From: Prevotellaceae bacterium UBA4301 | Lineage (GTDB): Bacteria > Bacteroidota > Bacteroidia > Bacteroidales > Bacteroidaceae | Direction: 5' to 3' | Assembly (NCBI GenBank): GCA_002395775.1 | Contig: DGUV01000075.1 | Location: 30,677 to 94,676, forward strand | Length of the DNA: 64,000 nucleotides | Part shown: in pieces, positions 7,740 to 37,522 of the stretch | How the letters are laid out: each line of letters begins with the position of its first letter | Position numbering within the stretch: the stretch's first letter is position 1 | The notes under the pieces: generated by a model | What the model saw: the letters and a program-made list of their open reading frames with translations, nothing else | The model's database searches: none | Told to the model about the DNA's origin: nothing | Position numbers and translations under genes: made by a program

Positions 7740-7880
7740 GATTCCCAATCATCGCCGAATCACTACCCAATCATCGCAAATTTACTTACCAATGATGAGC
7801 CGATGATTGGTAAGTGATTTCGTGATCATTGGTAATCTATTTTCTGATCATTGGGAATCTATTTCCTGATGATTGGGAAC
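7740..7880. repeat. Dyad-symmetric array of 22-bp-spaced CCAATSATS boxes
   Basis: Three cccaatcatcg-type boxes start at 7744, 7766 and 7788. Four inverted gatsattgg boxes have their attgg cores at 7806, 7828, 7850 and 7873. The symmetry centre is near 7800. Confidence 0.85.
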
Positions 7881-16179: not shown

Positions 16180-16233
16180 CTTTATATGTATTTAAGTTGT
16201 TAATTTAATTTCTTATAGGTTATGAGGGAGTTC

Positions 16234-16349
16234 TTGCTCCTCTTCGTTACACAAGCGTAGGCTTTGCCTCCGATTACTTGCTCCTCTTCGTTACGCAAGC
16301 GTCACTGCTTTGCAGATGCCGAGCGAAAGGGGAGTTAAAAGGGAGTTAG
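16234..16349. repeat. Upstream repeat cluster: direct repeat, diverged family C copy and family D boxes
   Basis: cttgctcctcttcgttacRcaagcgt occurs twice (16234 and 16277). It is followed by gcgtcactgctttgcagatgccgagcg, which resembles family C, and by ggagttaaaagggagtta, which is family D. Confidence 0.6.
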
Positions 16350-17093: not shown

Positions 17094-17300
17094 GGACATT
17101 GAACAAAAACCAAGAAAACACTTTGACGGAGCCTCGATTTAACAAAAACATAGAAAACACTTTGATGAAGTGGGAGGACTTCCAGTCCTCTGACCTAAGC
17201 CTCGTATAAGCTATCATGAGCAAGCTCACATAGCCTATACAACACTTCGGTCACACATTCGTGTTCCCACTTCTTCAAAGAAAAACCAAGAAAAATTATT
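17094..17300 (+). repeat. Left copy of a 207-bp direct repeat
   Basis: About 97 percent identical to 18003..18208, at an offset of 909 bp. It contains an internal 32-bp tandem unit (aacaaaaacNaagaaaacactttgaNg) and a hairpin (gaggacttccagtcctc). Confidence 0.9.
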
Positions 17301-17558
17301 ATTGTGTCATATATTTGTTTTTTATGTTTTTCTTTCCTCTCCTACATGTTCACGGAGTGAAGATTGGGGGATGAAGGAGTGAAGCCAAACTCGTTTGACT
17401 CTCACGACATCATCATGCAATCAACAAGCAAAAGCTTTGCAGCAGAGAAAAGGGTTTTCCTGGTTTTGGTTAAAAAGAATACAATAGGGCTTATTGGTTT
17501 TTGTCAACGAACTGCACAATAAAGAGGGGATGGCCTGCGTTCTCATAAAAAAGTTGCC

Positions 17559-17996
17559 ATGGAACTCAATATCAAGAAACTGACGGACACCGATAGGGTG
17601 GCGAAACTGAAGCAGTATGTTTATGACATCGTAGGATGTTGTCAGCATGTGCATGCAGAAATGGGACCATGGCTCAACGAATACATCTATCAGGAAGCAC
17701 TGCAGATTGCACTGGAACAGGCTGGCATCGCATCTGAACGAGAATACTGTTTCACAGTGTGCTACATGGGCAAAACACTTTCGAAGAAGCATTTTGTGGA
17801 TTTCCGATGCAAGGGCAATGTCTTTGTAGAGTGTAAGGCCATACAGTCGCTGGGCAATGAGCAGCGTCAGCAGTTGTGGAACTACATGAGGCTGACAAAC
17901 ACTCCCATTGGAATCCTTTTCAACTTTGCACCCGCTAAGGACCAATGTGAGAAATACTTCTACGATGCCGCCTCAAAGTCTATCTCCGCATTCTGA
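17559..17996 (+). CDS. GxxExxY family protein (PD-(D/E)XK-like, 23S IVS-associated family)
   Basis: 145 aa containing GPWLNEYIYQEAL (the G-x-x-E-x-x-Y motif), VDFRCKGNVFVECK and GILFNF. Confidence 0.8.
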   Translation: MELNIKKLTDTDRVAKLKQYVYDIVGCCQHVHAEMGPWLNEYIYQEALQIALEQAGIASEREYCFTVCYMGKTLSKKHFVDFRCKGNVFVECKAIQSLGNEQRQQLWNYMRLTNTPIGILFNFAPAKDQCEKYFYDAASKSISAF

Positions 17997-18002
17997 ACGG
18001 GA

Positions 18003-18208
18003 GGACATTGAACAAAAACCAAGAAAACACTTTGACGGAGCCTCGATTTAACAAAAACATAGAAAACACTTTGATGAAGTGGGAGGACTTCCAGTCCTCT
18101 GACCTAAGCCTCGTATAAGCTATCATGAGCAAGCTCACATAGCCTATACAATACTTCGGTCACACATTCGTGTACCCACTTCTTCAAAGAAAAACAAGAA
18201 AAAACTAT
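18003..18208 (+). repeat. Right copy of the 207-bp direct repeat
   Basis: Starts 7 nt after the GxxExxY stop codon. Weaker homology continues for another 200 bp or so on both copies. Confidence 0.9.
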
Positions 18209-18531
18209 TTCCTTGTTATGCCCTGCGGTATCAATATATGGTTTTCAAGGTTTTCATTGATGAAGCGCCTAGAACGAAGTGAAGCTATTGGGCCGTGAAT
18301 GGTGGTGGGAACTTGTTCACAAATACCATACACGGAACAAGAGAGGAAGGGCCGACAGGACATCTTGCGCTTCAACAATAGGTTTTATTGGTTTTCTTTG
18401 ATGAATCAACATGCCCTCACGCGCGTACGCGCATACATTAAATAATATTATATATGGGGGGGGTATATGGCTACGGCCTATAGGCTGCGGCACACGAAGA
18501 ACAATTGCACATTAAGCCATAAACGGGATGT

Positions 18532-19296
18532 TTATGGCTTTGTGTCTCCCTCTATGTAGTTCTCGAGATAGAGGTGCTGACCATCGAAGACGGCATAGGT
18601 GAACTGGCTGATCCAGTCGCCGAGGATGAGCATGCGACAGGTGTGGGAGAGCATGAGGTCGAGCTCGATGTGGCGATGACCGAAGATGAAGTAGTTGATG
18701 TCGGGATGGGAGGCCAGGTATTGCTTGGCATAGAGGACGAGATGTTCGCGGTCCTCACCGAGATAAGGAGGATCGCCTCCGTCGCCATGGCTGATGCGGC
18801 TGTGGCGTGCCCAGGAGAGGCCGAAGCGCATACCGAGGTCGGGATGGAGCCAACGGAAGAGCCACTGGCAAAGGGGGCTGTGGAAGATGGAGCGTATGAC
18901 GCGGAACTTGGGGTCGGGGTCGCCGAGTCCGTCGCCGTGACCGAGGTAGAAGGTCTGGTCGGCCAGGGAGAGCGTCATGGGTTGGCGGTGGAGAATGACG
19001 CCGCACTCCTCGGTGAGATAGTCCCATGTCCAGATGTCGTGGTTGCCCGTGAAGTAGTGGACTTCGACACCGAGGTCGGTGAGTTCGGATATCTTACCCA
19101 GGAAACGGGTGAAGCCGCGGGGTACGACGGTTCGGTATTCGAACCAGAAGTCGAACATGTCTCCGAGGAGATAGACGGCTTCGGCCTTGTCCTTGATTTC
19201 GTCGAGGAAACGCACGAGGCGGCGCTCCTGCTGCCTTGTGTGTTTCAAGGCTTTACTGCCCAAGTGGGCGTCAGAGAGAAAGTAGATATTCTTCAT
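18532..19296 (-). CDS. lpxH: UDP-2,3-diacylglucosamine diphosphatase
   Basis: MKNIYFLSDAHLG...GDMFDFWFEY...GNHD...GHRH are calcineurin-like metallophosphoesterase motifs typical of LpxH. Confidence 0.85.
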   Translation of the reverse strand: MKNIYFLSDAHLGSKALKHTRQQERRLVRFLDEIKDKAEAVYLLGDMFDFWFEYRTVVPRGFTRFLGKISELTDLGVEVHYFTGNHDIWTWDYLTEECGVILHRQPMTLSLADQTFYLGHGDGLGDPDPKFRVIRSIFHSPLCQWLFRWLHPDLGMRFGLSWARHSRISHGDGGDPPYLGEDREHLVLYAKQYLASHPDINYFIFGHRHIELDLMLSHTCRMLILGDWISQFTYAVFDGQHLYLENYIEGDTKP

Positions 19297-19303
19297 TTCT
19301 TAA

Positions 19304-19332
19304 GGAGTTAACGACCTGCGGTCGAGGAGTTA
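19304..19332. repeat. Family D module (GGAGTTAA-hairpin-GGAGTTA), inverted relative to 19835..19948
   Basis: ggagttaa cgacc tgc ggtcg a ggagtta. Confidence 0.8.
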
Positions 19333-19441
19333 TATTGGGAGTTATGTGGGGAGTTATATTGGGAGTTATATTGGGAGTTATGTGGGGAGTTATGTGGGGA
19401 GTTATGTGGGGAGTTATTGTTCACTGGAGTTATGTTGAGAC
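19326..19441. repeat. 12-bp tandem repeat (GGAGTTATRTKG), 7 units plus 2 degenerate units
   Basis: Units start at 19326, 338, 350, 362, 374, 386 and 398. Degenerate units start at 19410 and 19426. The array overlaps the last codons of the four-helix-bundle ORF. Confidence 0.9.
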
Positions 19442-19812
19442 TTGGCGGTAGAGGCCGAGGATTTCTCTCTTATTCCCTTGCAATAGGCATTAAGGTATAC
19501 GCTAGCACCTTCAAGAGAGTGATTGAGTTCTTCATGTTCTTCAGAACTAATGTAATCCAGATCGCGAGAAAGCATAATATAAAAACGACATTCTTCCAAA
19601 CTGCCTTGGGCAATGTTAAGGAAACGAAGTTTATCAGCTATGCTGAGCTTTTTATATCCTTCGGCAATATTAGCCGTTATTGATACGGCAGCTCTTTGGA
19701 ATTGTGACGCAAGACCATAACGCTCATAATCTGGGAATTTACGAGTTACTTTGTAAGTCATTAGCACAAACTCATAAGCCTTCTGCCATGCAATTATATC
19801 CTTGAATGTCAT
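19414..19812 (-). CDS. Four-helix-bundle protein (23S rRNA intervening-sequence protein / Avd-like family)
   Basis: 132 aa with WQKAYEFVLMTYKVTRKFP...RAAVSITANIAEGY...LNIAQGSLEE, the family signature. Confidence 0.85.
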   Translation of the reverse strand: MTFKDIIAWQKAYEFVLMTYKVTRKFPDYERYGLASQFQRAAVSITANIAEGYKKLSIADKLRFLNIAQGSLEECRFYIMLSRDLDYISSEEHEELNHSLEGASVYLNAYCKGIREKSSASTAKSQHNSSEQ

Positions 19813-19834
19813 GTATTCTTTTTTTATTACCTTT

Positions 19835-19948
19835 TAACTCCTCGACCAAAGGTCGTTAACTCCTTTTATTACCTTTTAACTCCTCAACTATGGTTGTTAA
19901 CTCCTTGCTCAAGGAGCATTAACTCCTCGACCAAAGGTCGTTAACTCC
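19835..19948. repeat. Four chained family D modules (TAACTCC-hairpin-TTAACTCC)
   Basis: Modules lie at 19835-63, 19877-904, 19898-926 and 19920-48. Their stems are cgacc/ggtcg, caac/gttg, tgctc/gagca and cgacc/ggtcg. Confidence 0.85.
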
Positions 19949-19953
19949 TTTTA

Positions 19954-20268
19954 TTACATCATCCCCAGTTCCAACTTCGCTTCTTCGGACATCATGTCCT
20001 TGTCCCACTCGGGTTCGAAGACCAGATTGACATCGACGTGGCGGAGGCCATCGATGGTCTCGAGCTTCTGGCGCACGTCCTCCATGATGAAGTCGGCGGC
20101 AGGGCAGTTGGGGGCGGTGAGCGTCATATCGACCTGAAGCTCGGTGGCATCGTCGGAGAGTTCGATGCGATAGATGAGTCCGAGGTCATAGATGTTGACG
20201 GGGATTTCGGGGTCATAGACGGTCTTGAGGAGGTCGATGACTTTTTCTTGTATCTCTATTTGGTCCAT
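19954..20268 (-). CDS. DUF59/MIP18-family Fe-S cluster assembly protein (SufT/PaaD-like)
   Basis: VYDPEIPVNIYDLGLIY...MTLTAPNCPAA. The start was set at the ATG at 20268 to avoid overlap with radC. Confidence 0.75.
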   Translation of the reverse strand: MDQIEIQEKVIDLLKTVYDPEIPVNIYDLGLIYRIELSDDATELQVDMTLTAPNCPAADFIMEDVRQKLETIDGLRHVDVNLVFEPEWDKDMMSEEAKLELGMM

Positions 20269-20305
20269 TATCAATTTCCAATTATCAATTTTCAATTTTC
20301 CATTT

Positions 20306-21070
20306 TCATATCTTCCCTTGTTCGCGATAGCTGTAGTAGCCTGTGTCGGCAACGATGATGTGGTCGGTGAACTGGATGTTCATGGTCTCACAGGCCGACT
20401 GTACGGAGCGGGTGAGGCGGTCGTCCTCGCGACTGGGGCGGAGATTGCCGCTGGGATGGTTGTGGCAAAGGATGAGGGCGGTGGCCCGTTGGAGCAGGGC
20501 CTGGCGCATGACCTCGCGCACATCGACGGCGGTGCCTGCGATGCCTCCGCGACTGATGAGGGCAGAGGAGATGATGCTGTGGTTTTGGCGCAGGAAGAGC
20601 ACGCGGCACTCCTCGAGCGGAAGGTCGCGCATGTCGGCAAAGTATTCGTAGGCCTGACTGCTGTCGGTGATGCAGCGGCGCGACACCACTTCCTCGCGAC
20701 GCCGACGGCTGCCCAGTTCGCAGGCTGCGAGCAGGGTGATGGCCTTGGCCTCGCCGATGCCCTTGTAGCGACTGGTGAGGTCGTTGATGGAGAGGCGTCC
20801 CAGGGCATTGAGACTGTTGTCGCAGTCGTGCAGGACGCGTTGCATGAGTCCGACGGCTGTCTCCTCGGCATTGCCGCTGCCGATGAGTATGGCCAGCAGC
20901 TCGGCATCGGAGAGGGCTGCGGACCCGTGGGCCATCATCTTCTCACGAGGGCGTGCGTCAAGGGGGAGGGATTTTATTGTTAATGATTTTCTTCCAATAG
21001 AAGGCTCACCCCCTTGCCCCTCCCTATTAAGGAGGGGGAATGTTACGTCTAATGTCCCGGTCTTTTTCAT
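20306..21070 (-). CDS. radC: RadC-family JAB/MPN domain protein
   Basis: SLPLDARPREKM, AELLAILIGSG and the JAMM motif HNHPSGNLRPSREDDRLT. The first ATG is at 21070 and the longer ORF begins with TTG. Confidence 0.85.
   Translation of the reverse strand: MKKTGTLDVTFPLLNREGQGGEPSIGRKSLTIKSLPLDARPREKMMAHGSAALSDAELLAILIGSGNAEETAVGLMQRVLHDCDNSLNALGRLSINDLTSRYKGIGEAKAITLLAACELGSRRRREEVVSRRCITDSSQAYEYFADMRDLPLEECRVLFLRQNHSIISSALISRGGIAGTAVDVREVMRQALLQRATALILCHNHPSGNLRPSREDDRLTRSVQSACETMNIQFTDHIIVADTGYYSYREQGKI
21003..21042. repeat. Family A arm inside the radC 5' coding end
   Basis: ggctcacccccttgcccctccctattaaggagggggaatg. On the minus strand it encodes TFPLLNREGQGGEPS, ahead of the conserved RadC N-terminal motif. 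Confidence 0.65.
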
Positions 21071-21082
21071 TACAACAATTTT

Positions 21083-21122
21083 TAACTCCTGCGCCAAAGG
21101 CGCTTAACTCCCCTTTAACTCC
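21083..21122. repeat. Family D module plus an extra TAACTCC box
   Basis: taactcc tgcgcc aaa ggcgc ttaactcc cctt taactcc. The stem differs from other copies but stays complementary. Confidence 0.8.
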
Positions 21123-21128
21123 CCTTTT

Positions 21129-22223
21129 CTATTTATAGAAAGTTTTCTCGAAGGCTTGGAGTTCCTCGTTGCGGCCAAGGACGCAGCGGAGCCACCAGGC
21201 ACGGAGGAAGCCAGAGCCGTAGCCCAGGAGCTGGATGAACGAGGCCGGGATGCTGAGCAGGCCTACGCGCAGACTGCGGTTCTGCAGGGAAGAGTCGATG
21301 AGGATGACGAGCGCATAGAGCAAGAGCGGCAGGAGGGCCAAGCCCATGAGGGCAGCTCCGAAATAGGAGACGACGAGTCCCATGTTGCATCCCGTGGGTC
21401 CGCAATAGGCTGAGCAAAGGTCGAGAATCAGGAACACGAGGCCCGTGAGGAAGACGGCGGACAGGGTGGCGACGCCTACAGTGAAGACGGCGGGCAGGAG
21501 GTGGACCAACTTGAGGCTGTCGGGATGGCGCTTATAGAGATTGATGCGCGCGATGCCGCTATTGTGGACCTGACGGAAGAACTTGCGGAAGTCTGTCCTG
21601 CGCTTGTGCCATACCCAAGCCTCGGGGAAGAGGCGACAACGGGCGCCCGACTTGAAGATGCGAATGCTGAAGTCGATGTCCTCGCCGAATCGCATGCGGG
21701 AGAAACCGCCAAGGCGGTCGTAGAGCGACTTCTGGATGCCCATGTTGAAGGAGCGGGGATAGAACTTATCGAGAGCCCCTTTCTTTTTCCCTCCGCGGAT
21801 GCCGCCGGTGGTGAAGAACGAGGTCATGGAATAGTTGATGGCCTTCTGGACAGGCGTGAAGCTCTCGTGGGCACGGTCGGGACCACCGAAGGCCTCGCAG
21901 GGGCGGTCGGTGAGTTCCTTGTCAACCTCCGAGAGATAGCCTTCGGGAAGCACCACATCGCTGTCCAGGACGATGAGATACTGGCCCCGGGCACGCTCAG
22001 CACCATAGTTGCGGCTTTGGCCTGGTCCGGAGTTGGGCTTCTCGAAATAGCGAACATCCAGCTGCTGGGCATAGCGACCGACAACATCTTCACAACGGAC
22101 TTGGGAACCATCCTCGACTATCAGGACCTCGAAATCGCGGAGAGTCTGATGCGTCAGGCTCTGCAGGAGTTCGTCCACCTCGTCGGGGCGGTTGAAAACG
22201 GGAACAATGATGCTGTATTTCAT
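21129..22223 (-). CDS. Family 2 glycosyltransferase with C-terminal transmembrane segments
   Basis: MKYSIIVPVFNRPDEVDELLQSL...VEDGS...DSD, followed by a hydrophobic C-terminus. Confidence 0.8.
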   Translation of the reverse strand: MKYSIIVPVFNRPDEVDELLQSLTHQTLRDFEVLIVEDGSQVRCEDVVGRYAQQLDVRYFEKPNSGPGQSRNYGAERARGQYLIVLDSDVVLPEGYLSEVDKELTDRPCEAFGGPDRAHESFTPVQKAINYSMTSFFTTGGIRGGKKKGALDKFYPRSFNMGIQKSLYDRLGGFSRMRFGEDIDFSIRIFKSGARCRLFPEAWVWHKRRTDFRKFFRQVHNSGIARINLYKRHPDSLKLVHLLPAVFTVGVATLSAVFLTGLVFLILDLCSAYCGPTGCNMGLVVSYFGAALMGLALLPLLLYALVILIDSSLQNRSLRVGLLSIPASFIQLLGYGSGFLRAWWLRCVLGRNEELQAFEKTFYK

Positions 22224-24475: not shown

Positions 24476-24541
24476 AATAATTAAATTAAAAATTAAAAGA
24501 TAAAAGTTAAGATAAAAGATATACGATATAAGATAAAAAAC

Positions 24542-25162: not shown

Positions 25163-25313
25163 ATATATAAAAGTTTAACGGGTTAACGGGTTAACGGGGT
25201 AACGGGGGGAATTTTTATGCGTTTTATGTGGGTTATTGGGGTAACTTGCAGGGGTTATATGATTTTTCGGGTGCAAAAGTAGTAAAAAATTTGCACGTAT
25301 CAAAAAAAGTCTG

Positions 25314-29589: not shown

Positions 29590-30289
29590 AGGAGTTAAAA
29601 GGGAGTTAAAGGGGAGTTATACTCGCTTTGCTCGTGGAGTTAAAGGGACAATTCGCCTACCAATCAAATACATTCGTCCCTTTACCTTCTTCTTAACGCC
29701 CCTTCTATTACTTTTAACTTTCTTTTCATTGTCGTCATGTCGTGACGACAATGATGATGCCCCCTACCCCAGCATCATCACCGAAATGGCCGACTGCCCC
29801 ACCAACAGCGACGGCACCATGGTGAAGATTGTGCTTGACGATGATACCGAACTGCCGCTCAGCAACCCACAAACGGGGTTGAAAGCCGATGTCATCTATC
29901 GCTGCCTGGCCGGCTACACCTTAGACAAAGGGCAAGCCACCCTCTATAGCCTGAAGTCTGCTGCCCTGCTGCGCGACTCCACGTCGGTGGCCCAGTGCGA
30001 CCCTGTGAATGTCGTAAGCCTGTGGCAGACACGCCGCTACATCAACCTCCATCTCATGCCCAAGACACAAGACCAAGGGACGCACTCGTGGGGATTCATC
30101 ACCGACAGCATCCGAGGCCGCCATGCCTACCTGCGGCTACACCACCGACAGGGCTCCGACCCAACGGCCTACAGCACCGACGTCTATGCCTCACTGCCCC
30201 TCCACCTCGTAGCGGCCGATACCATCACCCTGCGCATCCGCACCTTCTCTGGCACGAATGAGCAGACGTTTCCCTTAGAAAGCAAGTAA
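29573..30289 (+). CDS. Hypothetical lipoprotein, tentatively NigD-like
   Basis: It has the lipobox FFSLSSC. Its N-terminal 25 codons run through the family D GGAGTTA boxes. The family assignment is from memory only. Confidence 0.45.
   Translation: MKRRYKGVKRELKGSYTRFARGVKGTIRLPIKYIRPFTFFLTPLLLLLTFFSLSSCRDDNDDAPYPSIITEMADCPTNSDGTMVKIVLDDDTELPLSNPQTGLKADVIYRCLAGYTLDKGQATLYSLKSAALLRDSTSVAQCDPVNVVSLWQTRRYINLHLMPKTQDQGTHSWGFITDSIRGRHAYLRLHHRQGSDPTAYSTDVYASLPLHLVAADTITLRIRTFSGTNEQTFPLESK
29590..29641. repeat. Family D GGAGTTA boxes, 4 copies
   Basis: ggagtta occurs at 29590, 29601, 29612 and 29635. Confidence 0.75.
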
Positions 30290-34978: not shown

Positions 34979-37435
34979 TTAGAACTTGAGCGTCACGCTG
35001 CCCATTGCCGTGAAGCCAGCCATGGGAACATAGCCAATCTGATAATAACGGTTCTGCTCGGGATAGTCACTGCCGACGATGGCCGAGTACACCCAGCCCG
35101 ACGAAGCATAGCGACGATTGAAGATGTTGCGCAAATCGACACCGAAGACGATGTGCTTCAGACCTTTTCTCATTTTCTCATTTCCTCCACCTCTCATTTT
35201 CAGGTCATATCCCAGGTGGATGTTGGTCTGCGTGTACTTGGGCAGCGACCGATCCTTGTTGCAGGTGTTGTCGAGATACTGTCGCGAGACGAAGTTGGTG
35301 TGCCACGTAGCCTCGAAGCCCTTGACGTGGAAGTCGGCAAAACCATTCAGTATGGCCGCAGGCGAGAAGGCGAGCGTGGAATTGTCGTAGTGGACGGTGG
35401 TGGCCGGAAGGTCGTTCCAGTCGGCATCGTAGGTCTCTACGACCTCGTCGAAGTCACGAATCGTATTCTTGCTGATGGCGGCATTGGCTTCCAGAGAGAA
35501 CCACTTCGTCACATCTACTCCGGCCGACAGCTCCATGCCCAGCCTGTAGCTGCGATGGATGTTGGTGGTCAGTTTCTCACCGATGTCACTGTAGAGGCCC
35601 GTCTGCACGAACTGGTTGTCGTAGTACATCGAGTAGAGCCCGATGCCGGCGTGCCAGCGACTGCCTTGATAGTTGTAACCCAGTTCCACGTCGTGCAGGC
35701 TCTCTGCCTTAGGGGCAGGATAGTTGCCGTTGTCGGTGAAGTTGTTGCGCTCCGGTTCACGATGGCTGAGGGCATACGACACATAGGCCGAATGGCCATT
35801 CTGGTGGAACGAGATGCCCACCTTGGGGTTCAGGAAGTCGTACTGTTTCTTGATGTCGAGGAGATGGGCCTTGTAGGTGCCGTCCGCCTGCTTCACGAAA
35901 CTGTCGTGCGTGCCGCTGGTTATATATCCCACATGGCGATACTGCACGTCGGCAAAGGCATCCCAGGCCTTCGTGATGTGGAACATGCCCTTGAGGAAGA
36001 TTTGTCCGTCGGTCTTCGTGGCATCGTTGTCGTAGTAGTGATACCAGCCATGCTTGTCGCTGAAGAGGTCGGCCTGCAACTGGTCGTTGCTGGTGTAGGT
36101 AAGGTAACCATAGTGGTTGGCCTCGAAGTTCTGCAGCGAGACTCCGCCGATGACATCCCAACGGTTGTCCTGATAGTTGACGTTCCACACCATTCCGTAG
36201 CCGTCCTGCTTCATGCCCTTGCGGCGCACGTAGTCGGCCTTGCCCAGCGATGAGCCGTCGGAGAGCACCTCGGGCAGACCAAACTTCTTGGGCTTATTCT
36301 GGAGACGGAAACTCTGGTAGTAGCCGTGTCCGTGGGTGTAATGGAGCGTTCCGCTGGTGGTCCAGTGGTCGCTGATGTGCCACGAGAGGTTCAGCAAGTT
36401 GTGATTCTGCCAGAAGTTGTCGGTGGCACCGGGATAGAAACTTCCGTCTTTCATCTGATAGCGGCCGACAGTCCATCCGCCGTTCCAGTCGGGCGTAAAG
36501 GCTTCGTAGAGTTCGTTGTAGCGTCCGAGCCCCATCTTGTAGAGGTCCTTGTAGGTCTTCACCCCGTCGTAGGAGTTCAGACTATACTCATTGTCGCCCG
36601 GGCATACGCCGTTCCAGGCCTGTCCCGTCCGCTCGTAGTTACCGATATTCTTGTAACTCAGCTTCAGCGTCCCATCATTATTAATATAGGTAAGGCCGCC
36701 ATAGTAACTGCCGCTCCGTCCGTCGGTGCCATGGATGAATCCGTCGGTGCGCGTTCCGTGGTAGGCGCCGTCGATGATGACACCTCCCCCGGCCCCTCCC
36801 AAGGAGGGGTGATTGTCCTTGCCCTTTTTCCTCTGCAGCAGCCCTGTGGAGAACGAGCCGCCGAAGTTCCAGGTGTTGTAGGAACCGCCCGAGGCCGAAA
36901 GTTCGAGCGAGGGGAAGGGGTTCGGGGCCTTCGTTTGCAGGGCCACCGTACCGCCAAAGGCTCCGTCACCATTGGTAGATGTACCCACACCGCGCTGTAT
37001 CTGGACGTTGGAGAGCAAAGCTGAGTAGGAGTTCATGTTGGCCCAGAAGACACACTGGTCCTCGGGCGAATTAAGTGACACGCCGTCCAGTGTCACGTTG
37101 ATGCGCGAGTCGCCAGCCCCACGGATGCGCATGTAGGTCGTTCCCGTGCCCAGTCCGTTCTCGCTCCAGGCCATCACGCCCGGGGTGCGGGCAAAGAGGA
37201 AGGGCAGTTCCTGTCCCGTCCGGGAGAAGGTCTCCAGTTGCTTGCGGTCGATCTTCGTCACGGCAAAGGGAGCATTCGCAGGAGCCTTTACGGCCTTCAC
37301 AACTACTTCGTTCAGAGCCTCCATCTTCATTGAGTCGGAGACCTCATTCACTTGGGCAAATCCCACCTGTGTCATACTCATCATGAGCACGACAGCTACT
37401 AATTTCTGCATAGTATTCTTATTTATAATGTTCAT
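34979..37435 (-). CDS. TonB-dependent outer-membrane receptor, probably for thiamine uptake
   Basis: 818 aa with a signal peptide, a plug domain, beta-barrel repeats and a terminal aromatic residue (TLKF). It lies directly downstream of a TPP riboswitch. Confidence 0.85.
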   Translation of the reverse strand: MNIINKNTMQKLVAVVLMMSMTQVGFAQVNEVSDSMKMEALNEVVVKAVKAPANAPFAVTKIDRKQLETFSRTGQELPFLFARTPGVMAWSENGLGTGTTYMRIRGAGDSRINVTLDGVSLNSPEDQCVFWANMNSYSALLSNVQIQRGVGTSTNGDGAFGGTVALQTKAPNPFPSLELSASGGSYNTWNFGGSFSTGLLQRKKGKDNHPSLGGAGGGVIIDGAYHGTRTDGFIHGTDGRSGSYYGGLTYINNDGTLKLSYKNIGNYERTGQAWNGVCPGDNEYSLNSYDGVKTYKDLYKMGLGRYNELYEAFTPDWNGGWTVGRYQMKDGSFYPGATDNFWQNHNLLNLSWHISDHWTTSGTLHYTHGHGYYQSFRLQNKPKKFGLPEVLSDGSSLGKADYVRRKGMKQDGYGMVWNVNYQDNRWDVIGGVSLQNFEANHYGYLTYTSNDQLQADLFSDKHGWYHYYDNDATKTDGQIFLKGMFHITKAWDAFADVQYRHVGYITSGTHDSFVKQADGTYKAHLLDIKKQYDFLNPKVGISFHQNGHSAYVSYALSHREPERNNFTDNGNYPAPKAESLHDVELGYNYQGSRWHAGIGLYSMYYDNQFVQTGLYSDIGEKLTTNIHRSYRLGMELSAGVDVTKWFSLEANAAISKNTIRDFDEVVETYDADWNDLPATTVHYDNSTLAFSPAAILNGFADFHVKGFEATWHTNFVSRQYLDNTCNKDRSLPKYTQTNIHLGYDLKMRGGGNEKMRKGLKHIVFGVDLRNIFNRRYASSGWVYSAIVGSDYPEQNRYYQIGYVPMAGFTAMGSVTLKF
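36781..36811. repeat. Family A arm, in-frame in the TonB receptor gene
   Basis: cacctcccccggcccctcccaaggaggggtg. On the minus strand it encodes HPSLGGAGGGV. Confidence 0.7.
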
Positions 37436-37437
37436 AC

Positions 37438-37514
37438 TCTCTACGCCAGCATTACCTGGTTCAGATTCTTAGGGTCTGTTCTCAGCCACGCCAAAAGACG
37501 AGGCACCCCTGATT
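37438..37514 (-). promoter_or_regulatory. TPP (THI-box) riboswitch
   Basis: The minus strand reads caggggtgcctcgtcttttggcgtggctgagaacagaccctaagaatctgaaccaggtaatgctggcgtagagag. The GGGGUGC, CUGAGA, ACCC and GAACC..GGUAAUGC..GCG elements appear in the canonical order. The element ends 2 nt before the ATG. Confidence 0.85.
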
Positions 37515-37522
37515 AACGACTG

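Follow-up and report, generated by a model that had tools for sequence, protein, structure and literature searches.

A putative intervening-sequence-like cassette encoding a four-helix-bundle protein, enclosed by inverted tandem box arrays, in a Prevotellaceae operon

Introduction

What is a gene of the 23S rRNA intervening-sequence protein family doing between two genes of a protein-coding operon, and what are the inverted, structured repeats that enclose it? The question is raised by a 64,000-nt stretch of DNA from Prevotellaceae bacterium UBA4301 (hereafter the window), in which a gene for a four-helix-bundle protein sits between a sufT-like and an lpxH-like gene on the same strand as both. 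Intervening sequences of 23S rRNA with S23p open reading frames (ORFs) have been known for thirty years, and both their origin and the role of the protein are unexplained. In Coxiella the element holds an S23p ORF within terminal inverted repeats that form a 28-bp stem with one mismatch and a bulge, carries tandem heptamers (GACAGAT) in strain-variable number immediately upstream of the ATG, and is cleaved by RNase III (PMC4990558).

Here we analyze block 19302-19950 of the window, which consists of the gene and two inverted arrays of a short box. By analogy with the rRNA elements we interpret the block as an intervening-sequence-type cassette residing in a protein-coding operon rather than in 23S rRNA, an interpretation in which we place about half of our belief. 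The cassette is best filed as an intervening-sequence-like element outside rRNA, that is, as a new form of a known element type.

Results

A four-helix-bundle gene lies between inverted tandem arrays

The initial annotation had assigned the gene to the four-helix-bundle family, in agreement with the matches of its 132-aa product to PF05635 (E 7.9e-35) and to TIGR02436 'four helix bundle protein' (112 bits, cut-off 24). Among solved structures the nearest is that of the Xanthomonas S23p protein XCC0516 (PDB 2GSC, E 1.7e-21), and 6005 relatives were found at E <= 1e-20. Read along the gene strand, the sufT stop codon is followed by 4 nt, six GGAGTTAA boxes, an A-rich leader, the ORF, a 12-bp array, a hairpin module and 6 nt before the lpxH ATG (Table 1). 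The 8-nt box reads GGAGTTAA on the 5′ side of the ORF and TTAACTCC on the 3′ side, making the two arms inverted tandem arrays. Within the 5′ arm, four 22-bp units (CGACC-TTT, TGCTC-CTT, CAACC-ATA and CGACC-TTT) contain perfect or near-perfect hairpins with a 5-bp stem and a 3-nt loop, while one further unit, AAAGGTAATAAAA, has no hairpin. On the 3′ side Tandem Repeats Finder places the 12-bp array at 19326-19417 (7.7 copies, 92% matches), which on the gene strand reads (CCACA/CAATA)TAACTCC; the final ~10 codons of the gene are themselves degenerate repeat units. The outermost unit of the 3′ arm (19302-19332) is 94% complementary to both 19835-19865 and 19920-19950, so that a 31-nt inverted repeat with 94% complementarity is made up of the left module and its outermost counterpart on the right.

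These data agree with the initial annotation in the TAACTCC-hairpin modules and their positions and in the 12-bp tandem array at the left end. The four modules it described on the right are also in place, but two of them are identical and the interposed unit AAAGGTAATAAAA is not a hairpin. Across both strands of the window the heptamer GGAGTTA has 27 matches, compared with 5.2 +/- 2.2 (maximum 11) in dinucleotide shuffles, and all but two fall into five intergenic clusters. The looser clusters noted earlier near 16331 and 29590 are among them, at 16331-16348 and 29591-29642.

Table 1 Features of the cassette region and box clusters elsewhere in the window. Hairpin modules are given on the strand on which the box reads GGAGTTAA.
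Feature	Position	Strand	Description
Four-helix-bundle gene (S23p / 23S rRNA intervening-sequence protein family)	19414-19812	-	132 aa
5′ arm	19835..19950	-	six GGAGTTAA boxes, 13-nt spacers; begins 4 nt past sufT stop
A-rich leader AAAAGGTAATAAAAAAAGAATAC	19813..19834	-	between last box and ATG of four-helix-bundle gene
3′ arm, inner	19326..19443	+	12-bp array GGAGTTATRTKG, then two degenerate units running into gene 3′ end
3′ arm, outermost unit	19302..19332	+	AAGGAGTTAA-CGACC-TGC-GGTCG-A-GGAGTTA; ends 6 nt ahead of lpxH ATG
Hairpin module	19948-19920	-	CGACC TTT GGTCG
Hairpin module	19926-19898	-	TGCTC CTT GAGCA
Hairpin module	19904-19877	-	CAACC ATA GTTG
Hairpin module	19863-19835	-	CGACC TTT GGTCG
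Hairpin module	21111-21083	-	GCGCC TTT GGCGC
Hairpin module	19304-19332	opposite orientation to the others	CGACC TGC GGTCG
GGAGTTA cluster	16331-16348	+	
GGAGTTA cluster	19304-19432	+	
GGAGTTA cluster	19835-19948	-	
GGAGTTA cluster	21083-21122	-	
GGAGTTA cluster	29591-29642	+	
Solo array, GT2-radC junction	21049..21122	-	three boxes, one hairpin unit GCGCC-TTT-GGCGC, tail motif GGGACATTAG (21058-21049)
Solo array, canonical 11-bp type	29591..29655	+	starts 2 nt past upstream gene's stop codon; family tail GGAGTTAAAGGGACAATTCG
Two-box remnant GGAGTTAAAAGGGAGTTAG	16331..16348	+	pattern matches
lpxH-like (UDP-2,3-diacylglucosamine diphosphatase)	18532-19296	-	downstream neighbour; ATG overlaps sufT stop in relatives
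sufT-like (SUF-associated Fe-S assembly)	19954-20268	-	upstream neighbour; profile searches
Family-2 glycosyltransferase (GT2)	21129-22223	-	domain profile searches

Predicted pairing between the arms

In the predicted RNA fold of 19290-19965 (minus strand) the minimum free energy (MFE) is -187.4 kcal/mol, against -144.1 +/- 4.1 in shuffles (z -10.6). The terminal modules close the whole cassette in both the MFE and the centroid folds, the inner boxes pair box to box and the palindromic spacers form local hairpins. For the arm duplex of the window alone z is -11.2, and in nine of the ten cassettes tested the complementarity of the two arms is significant (z -5.9 to -11.9). Searched with Rfam 15 at gathering thresholds, the whole window contains no rRNA; its sole match is a thiamine pyrophosphate (TPP) riboswitch elsewhere (37421-37520, minus strand; RF00059, 61.9 bits against a gathering score of 54.3). 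A further Rfam scan of 19200-21200, taken up to E = 1, returned no match.

The block is an insertion into a compact operon

The cassette region (18.5-22.2 kb of the window) includes four neighbour genes, all on the minus strand. In species whose LpxH is 76-87% identical this operon is compact, and the TGA of sufT overlaps the ATG of lpxH (cTATGAag). The 658-bp block of the window is therefore an insertion. GT2 and radC overlap in the relatives as well, from which it follows that the three-box array at 21083-21122 is also an insertion; the gap between radC and sufT is 5 nt in some of these species (L262). The solo array at the GT2-radC junction now supplies the start of radC (ATG at 21070), adding about 36 N-terminal codons in comparison with relatives. 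The region of the ancestral radC ATG (window 20940-21100) is altered, and gene callers disagree on the length of the product, giving 210 aa or 254 aa in L002 and L004. At the empty sufT-lpxH site relatives read ...GGAATGCTATGAAGAAT, and the filled site reads ...GATGATGTAATAAAA[cassette]TTAAGAAATGAAGAAT; no clear target duplication is visible, and the junction has diverged. Next to or inside the array pairs examined, no transposase or integrase was seen. We also considered a transposase lying between distant inverted arrays, but the enclosed ORFs are ordinary (DUF4468, helicase, URO-D) and this candidate was rejected.

Compared with its orthologue in L246, the four-helix-bundle gene has a dN/dS of 0.11, and the protein is under purifying selection. 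Against the homologues at other junctions pN is 0.16-0.19 (0.26 for L013) and pS is saturated. Since synonymous sites are saturated, the cassettes at different junctions are old. The boxes in these old cassettes nevertheless remain exactly GGAGTTA/TAACTCC, a degree of conservation that points to a sequence-specific constraint beyond pairing or, alternatively, to concerted evolution. The initial annotation had proposed a discrete mobile cassette. Its discreteness is borne out by the gene overlap in relatives, whereas the lack of a clear target duplication and of a transposase, together with synonymous saturation, leaves little to support mobility.

Other short tandem arrays occur in this operon. 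At the radC-sufT junction the window has a heptamer array, GAAAATT/GATAATT (20267-20308), where related species (L262-L275) have (GTTTAGA)5-6, CACAATT-type repeats or just 5 nt, and one of them (L272) has (TAATTCG)3 between sufT and lpxH. Every unit of these heptamer arrays holds a stop codon, and the periods are never multiples of three. Short tandem arrays unrelated to one another thus arise repeatedly at the same operon junctions.

Related genes at other junctions are bracketed in the same manner

Are other genes of this family enclosed in the same way? We looked at about 0.9 Mb of loci selected for arrays only and, separately, at homologues picked by protein similarity alone. The array-selected loci yielded one further four-helix-bundle gene between inverted GGAGTTAA arrays (L013, upstream of an ABC ATPase gene). 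The similarity-selected homologues (74-93% identical) added four more places: the orthologous sufT-lpxH junction (L246/247) and three new junctions, namely mannitol dehydrogenase-altronate dehydratase (L248), epimerase-NTP_transf_5 (L249-258) and araA-FGGY (L259-261). Across all five places the homologues are 59-93% identical, every one of them has inverted GGAGTTAA arms abutting the flanking genes, and the ORF is always on the strand of its neighbours. The common layout is a stop codon, (GGAGTTAAARG)n, AAGGACATTAG, the ORF from ATG to stop, CTATCGTCC, m copies of CTTTAACTCC and the next ATG. Because this layout is shared, the ORF occupies the centre of a palindrome that elsewhere is found without an ORF.

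Further small ORFs at such junctions have other boxes. A second four-helix-bundle lineage (35-39% identical), which is syntenic across species, has AAGGTCA/TGACCTT arms in every species looked at, and a third has CAATTGA-type arms, with the same type of box as among the junction repeats above, for example at 2071-2427 of L287. Genes of the PDDEXK_3 (GxxExxY) family carry CGGAAAT or ACACGGAT arms, and L259 has GAAGTTAA/TTAACTTC arms. Whether all four-helix-bundle paralogues are flanked alike was a question of the initial annotation: the same-lineage homologues at the five places are, and the other two lineages have boxes of their own. Depending on the strain, one and the same junction can house a four-helix-bundle, a PDDEXK_3 or a DUF559 gene. 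Overall, small ORFs of the four-helix-bundle and PD-(D/E)XK kinds in Prevotellaceae operons systematically lie between inverted tandem arrays specific to their lineage.

In one Prevotella sugar-nucleotide operon (GHMP kinase, NTP transferase, epimerase, NTP_transf_5; L249-L258, L277-L287) the small ORFs at junctions come from four families (four-helix-bundle, PDDEXK_3, DUF559 and GIY-YIG). Strains with an identical four-helix-bundle protein at another place in this operon differ in the ORF that a given junction holds, and the GIY-YIG and DUF559 ORFs there have no inverted arrays.

Arrays differ between strains

On metagenome scaffolds whose LpxH is 100% identical, the four-helix-bundle gene is the same and the arrays differ. 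The array of L002 equals that of the window. L003 and L004 have seven upstream boxes instead of six, lack the non-hairpin unit, have more 12-bp units downstream and include two units absent from the window (TGCCC-TTC-GGGCA and TGCTC-TTT-GAGCA); the assembly of L004 is broken within the array. In the related species represented by L246/247, with a protein 93% identical, we counted twelve boxes upstream and two downstream. The number of boxes in the 3′ arm differs among strains as well (10, 11 or more). The arrays thus evolve quickly, their unit number and order changing between strains, as expected from slippage or unequal exchange.

A PDDEXK_3/GxxExxY gene also lies in the window itself (17559-17996, plus strand), opposite in strand to its neighbours. 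It is flanked by 207-nt direct repeats (17094-17300 and 18003-18209; 97% identical), with short inverted repeats at 17491-17504 and 18012-18025 around it, and it is called in L002 but not in L003 or L004, despite their identical LpxH. Beside the two-box GGAGTTA remnant, two copies of a 31-nt direct repeat, GAGTTCTTGCTCCTCTTCGTTACACAAGCGT, stand 44 nt apart (16228-16302); the syntenic loci show a ParE/YoeB-type toxin gene pair, downstream of which the repeat lies.

The cassette belongs to a larger family of box arrays

We scanned one genome per species with the pattern GGAGTTAA-N13-AGGAGTTAA, which matched at least 119 stretches. Those listed are overwhelmingly from Prevotella/Prevotellaceae genomes of the rumen, gut and mouth. 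The pattern mostly caught two 11-bp periods rather than hairpins, the usual repeat being a tandem 11-bp unit, GGAGTTAAARR. Among roughly 700 spacings between adjacent boxes in the listed matches, 303 are 11 bp, 119 are 22 bp, 69 are 8 bp and 49 are 12 bp. Arrays typically finish in a palindromic tail (...GGAGTTAAAGGGACATATGT... or ...GGAGTTAAGACAAATG...), and their most conserved unique motif is at the inner end, not at the tips. The outer end abuts a gene boundary, with a median of 13 nt past the stop codon of the same-strand upstream gene in the listed matches. These also include about 25 inverted array pairs, facing each other across 31-170 bp and filling the entire intergenic space.

Arrays occur by many unrelated genes and in both orientations. 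Solo arrays and 'empty' inverted pairs are many, and arrays far outnumber four-helix-bundle genes, a point on which the reading of the initial annotation needs changing. Single metagenome-assembled genomes (MAGs), such as RUG13201 and RGIG6036, hold numerous ORF-less copies, whereas the copy in the window carries a conserved ORF. Among 2.9 million viral contigs a pattern of three 11-bp units matched one, and the array is essentially absent there. A literature search for the repeat sequence gave unrelated primer matches only, and in the literature on Prevotella repeats, the four-helix-bundle family and GxxExxY we found no description of such cassettes.

Several related arrangements occur elsewhere. 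At ~5073-5333 of L139, an ORF-less inverted pair has 22-bp hairpin units in one arm and GGAGTTATATGG 12-bp units in the other, the same asymmetry of arms as in the window cassette. A conserved leader, AAGTTTCGCnnnCGCTCAACTTTCA, precedes many 11-bp arrays in Prevotella MAGs (L017, L031, L032, L109, L112, L113, L123 and others) and suggests a larger repeat unit of leader, array and tail. Within the window, inverted arrays of 22-bp units with a different box (CCCAATCATCGC... versus ...GATCATTGGGAA) lie without an ORF between convergent genes (7745-7879), upstream of efp there is (TTAACGGG)x4, and the M3 peptidase gene is followed by AT-rich 7-mer arrays (25175-25206 and 24483-24538, respectively).

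Hairpin stems covary

The initial annotation had also claimed that the stems change while remaining complementary. In metagenomes we searched for box-N13-box, with H/D positions in the pattern that exclude 11-bp arrays, and obtained 146 matches. Of these, 21 have 5/5 Watson-Crick pairs, where our own estimate of the expectation is ~0.25. The distribution of pairing counts is bimodal, most matches beyond the 21 perfect ones having 0-2 pairs. A covariation set was then assembled from every 22-bp unit of arrays holding at least one perfect hairpin. It comprises 22 distinct units from at least 12 contigs, with 15 perfect 5-bp stems. Membership of the set depends in part on the presence of a hairpin. 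Within it, paired cells make up 93.6%, as opposed to 56.5% for shuffles and 24-36% when the register is slid. Double-sided changes number 42, and the covariation score of 0.97 (0.21 in shuffles) was equalled by 0/500 shuffles. On this larger sample, then, the claim of covarying stems holds. The stems are nearly all Watson-Crick (2 G-U cells), the loop-closing pair is almost always C-G and the loops are T-rich.

Nevertheless, hairpins are not the core of the element; the core is the box array, mostly with an 11-bp period and no hairpins. Hairpin spacers with a 5-bp stem and a 3-nt loop are a minority variant of the family, seen in either arm in the window lineage and in L072, L139, L154, L169, L192, L207 and L222. 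Hybrid units with mismatched stems in the close relative L246, such as TGACC-TTC-GGGCA, show that the constraint on the hairpin is not absolute. Hairpins, in short, embellish a far larger family of box arrays.

Comparison with known elements

The cassette most resembles the 23S rRNA intervening sequences of Coxiella burnetii and Leptospira (PMC4990558), with the same protein family in the loop and the ORF on the sense strand of the host transcript. As in Coxiella, the terminal stem measures ~28-31 bp and is interrupted by one or two imperfections, short tandem repeats in strain-variable number make up its 5′ side, and the ATG comes directly after the repeats. The upstream arm has 6 boxes in the window, 7 in L003/L004 and 12 in L246, in differing order. 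The differences are equally clear. The Coxiella element sits in helix 45 of 23S rRNA and the window cassette at a junction of a polycistronic mRNA; the window arrays are much longer (6-12 units), with an 8-nt box, periods of 11, 12 or 22 bp and optional hairpin spacers; and genomes of the window type abound in ORF-less and solo arrays. The Coxiella ORF is reported to be decaying (PMC4990558), in contrast to the purifying selection on the window protein, and RNase III cleavage, demonstrated for the 23S element, is inferred for the window cassette.

Other short repeats share some of these properties. Correia elements (CREE/NEMIS, Neisseria) are likewise abundant short intergenic elements with inverted-repeat ends; they have fixed terminal repeats of 26 bp, a TA target duplication and no ORF, and they are co-transcribed with their neighbours. 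RNase III, bound by their hairpin, cuts or protects it, and the expression of adjacent genes is affected (PMC2649163). They are a second precedent for the action of RNase III on inverted-repeat elements in mRNAs. The present elements differ in that their arms are tandem arrays that vary, that we found no duplication and that some of them carry a gene. BrickBuilt elements of Porphyromonas gingivalis (PMC4596501), also in Bacteroidales, are strictly intergenic with many partial forms and consist of a tandem array of 22-23-nt units in variable number with a conserved leader and tail. Unlike the window element, with two inverted arrays round a centre able to hold a gene, BrickBuilt is a single direct array within small terminal inverted repeats, has no ORF and is unrelated in unit sequence. 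Repetitive extragenic palindromes (REP) and the mosaic elements built from them (BIME) have palindromic units right after stop codons, and integron attC sites accompany promoterless ORFs, each with a structured site of variable sequence and conserved structure. In contrast to both, we saw neither a RAYT nor an integrase gene close to any of the loci, and in place of a single imperfect palindrome the window ORF has tandem arrays of box plus spacer on either side.

Discussion

How could such a block be accommodated in a tight operon? The cassette gene is promoterless and has the orientation of its neighbours. On transcription of the operon the two arms would pair, the outermost 31 nt as a near-perfect duplex, and the ORF would become the loop of a long stem, while the palindromic spacers would fold locally into 5-bp hairpins and keep unmatched spacer nucleotides aside. 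On the model of the 23S rRNA intervening sequence of Coxiella and Leptospira, this stem would be a substrate of RNase III, whose cut would free the flanking cistrons as separate, still translatable mRNAs, which would explain why the insertion is tolerated. Cleavage without ligation would be harmless between cistrons, as it is at the tip of an rRNA helix.

Several observations weigh against this interpretation. Arm pairing is no more stable in the sense than in the antisense direction, being mixed over 17 cassettes and equal on average, and in the window the antisense arm duplex is even stabler by 18 kcal/mol. As there is no sense-strand bias, nothing specifically favours RNA over DNA as the molecule in which complementarity counts. 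The closest relative, L246/247, has a 3′ arm reduced to two boxes and no significant arm-arm pairing (z -0.6), which shows that an element can do without the stem. The majority of arrays in these genomes stand alone or have no ORF, and a solo array cannot form a stem. Nor does pairing alone explain why boxes are exact where the ORFs are synonymously saturated. Finally, since the element lies outside rRNA, the analogy with rRNA intervening sequences is structural.

A role at the level of DNA is a serious rival, though we consider it rather less probable than the intervening-sequence interpretation. The inverted arrays would then be the terminal or subterminal repeats of a non-autonomous element, a MITE (miniature inverted-repeat transposable element) with an internal minisatellite, moved by an enzyme encoded elsewhere. 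The four-helix-bundle gene would be cargo or an accessory, the ORF-less pairs miniature derivatives and RNA pairing a by-product. Such an element would account for the terminal inverted repeats, for the nearly pure Watson-Crick complementarity without sense-strand bias, for the insertion relative to related species, for the ~25 empty inverted pairs with 31-170-bp centres among the listed matches and the many solo arrays per genome, for the L139 empty pair with the arm asymmetry of the window (22-bp hairpin units and 12-bp units), and for the different small ORFs at the same junction in near-identical strains; BrickBuilt, a minisatellite-MITE for which a role of this kind has been proposed, provides a precedent in Bacteroidales (PMC4596501). 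It sits poorly with the lack of a clear target-site duplication at the sole junction for which the empty site is known and of a transposase or integrase by or within any array pair examined. Nor is there a sign of recent transposition, the cassettes being old by synonymous saturation and the second lineage syntenic, and the most conserved unique motif is at the inner end of the arrays instead of the tips.

Alternatively, the boxes may be binding sites. In this scenario, which we regard as unlikely, each lineage of the encoded protein would recognize its own putative RNA or DNA box, controlling its own expression or processing and acting in trans on solo arrays. Avd, a related protein, binds nucleic acid. 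The type of box tracks the protein in three four-helix-bundle lineages, but co-inheritance of arms and ORF as a unit would give the same correlation, and genes of the unrelated PD-(D/E)XK fold carry the same kind of arms. That the box is exact where synonymous sites are saturated and common to Prevotellaceae genera implies a sequence-specific reader, yet arrays vastly outnumber the genes. S23p assembles into a homopentameric ring (cited in PMC4990558).

Less is to be said for reading the arrays as functionless slippage repeats at operon junctions, with the gene an unrelated hitch-hiker and the hairpins accidental. Unrelated 7-8-mer arrays do occupy the same junctions in other species ((GTTTAGA)5-6, (TAATTCG)3) and in the window (GAAAATT/GATAATT), copy number varies freely among strains and hybrid units break the hairpins in L246. 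This interpretation is disfavoured, and improbable in our view, given the same box across many species and junctions, a consistently present inverted partner array (z -6 to -12), arms that covary by lineage, 15 distinct perfect 5-bp stems with 0/500 shuffles as good, and 21 perfect hairpins where ~0.25 are expected. Still more improbable are a generic role as terminators or attenuators and a role as a contingency (phase-variable) tract setting lpxH expression. The arrays do lie between genes, and the 12-bp tract just upstream of lpxH differs in unit number among strains. Modules as terminators were rejected, however, as the consensus scan called none and no module has a T tract; A-GGAGTTAA comes after the stems, which are just 5 bp long, the region has about as many terminator-like sites as chance predicts (4 versus 3.4), and arrays stand at many unrelated genes in both orientations. 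The link of the gene to the accessory protein Avd of diversity-generating retroelements (DGRs), drawn in the initial annotation, comes down to homology of the four-helix-bundle fold. The similarities to bAvd (PF22296, 30.3 against a cut-off of 40) and to the Avd equivalog (NF033474, 41.3 against 80) are weak and below cut-off, there is no template/variable repeat pair, no reverse transcriptase is encoded close by in the window or listed in gene tables for six syntenic loci, and the neighbours are lpxH, sufT, radC, GT2 and an M3 peptidase gene. A DGR role is refuted for practical purposes.

A broader possibility, bold and in our judgement doubtful, is that ring-shaped S23p-type oligomers are the sequence-specific readers, in RNA or DNA, of the boxes that bracket their own genes (GGAGTTAA, AAGGTCA or CAATTGA by lineage) and thereby control processing, expression or spread, acting in trans on solo arrays. 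If true, rRNA intervening sequences and operon cassettes would be one selfish or regulatory class that colonises RNA sites tolerant of breaks.

In practical terms, the arrays break assemblies (the N gap in L004), lead to ORF calls that are spurious and move the start codons of adjacent genes, radC being an example here. PF05635 genes are very numerous and annotated merely as 'four helix bundle protein', and those in Prevotellaceae operon junctions share with the rRNA elements an architecture in which the stem is made of tandem repeats. The cassettes therefore offer a concrete, testable system for the putative processing of operon mRNAs by RNase III at the arms, recognition of boxes by protein and the turnover of small ORFs in an important clade of the gut and rumen.

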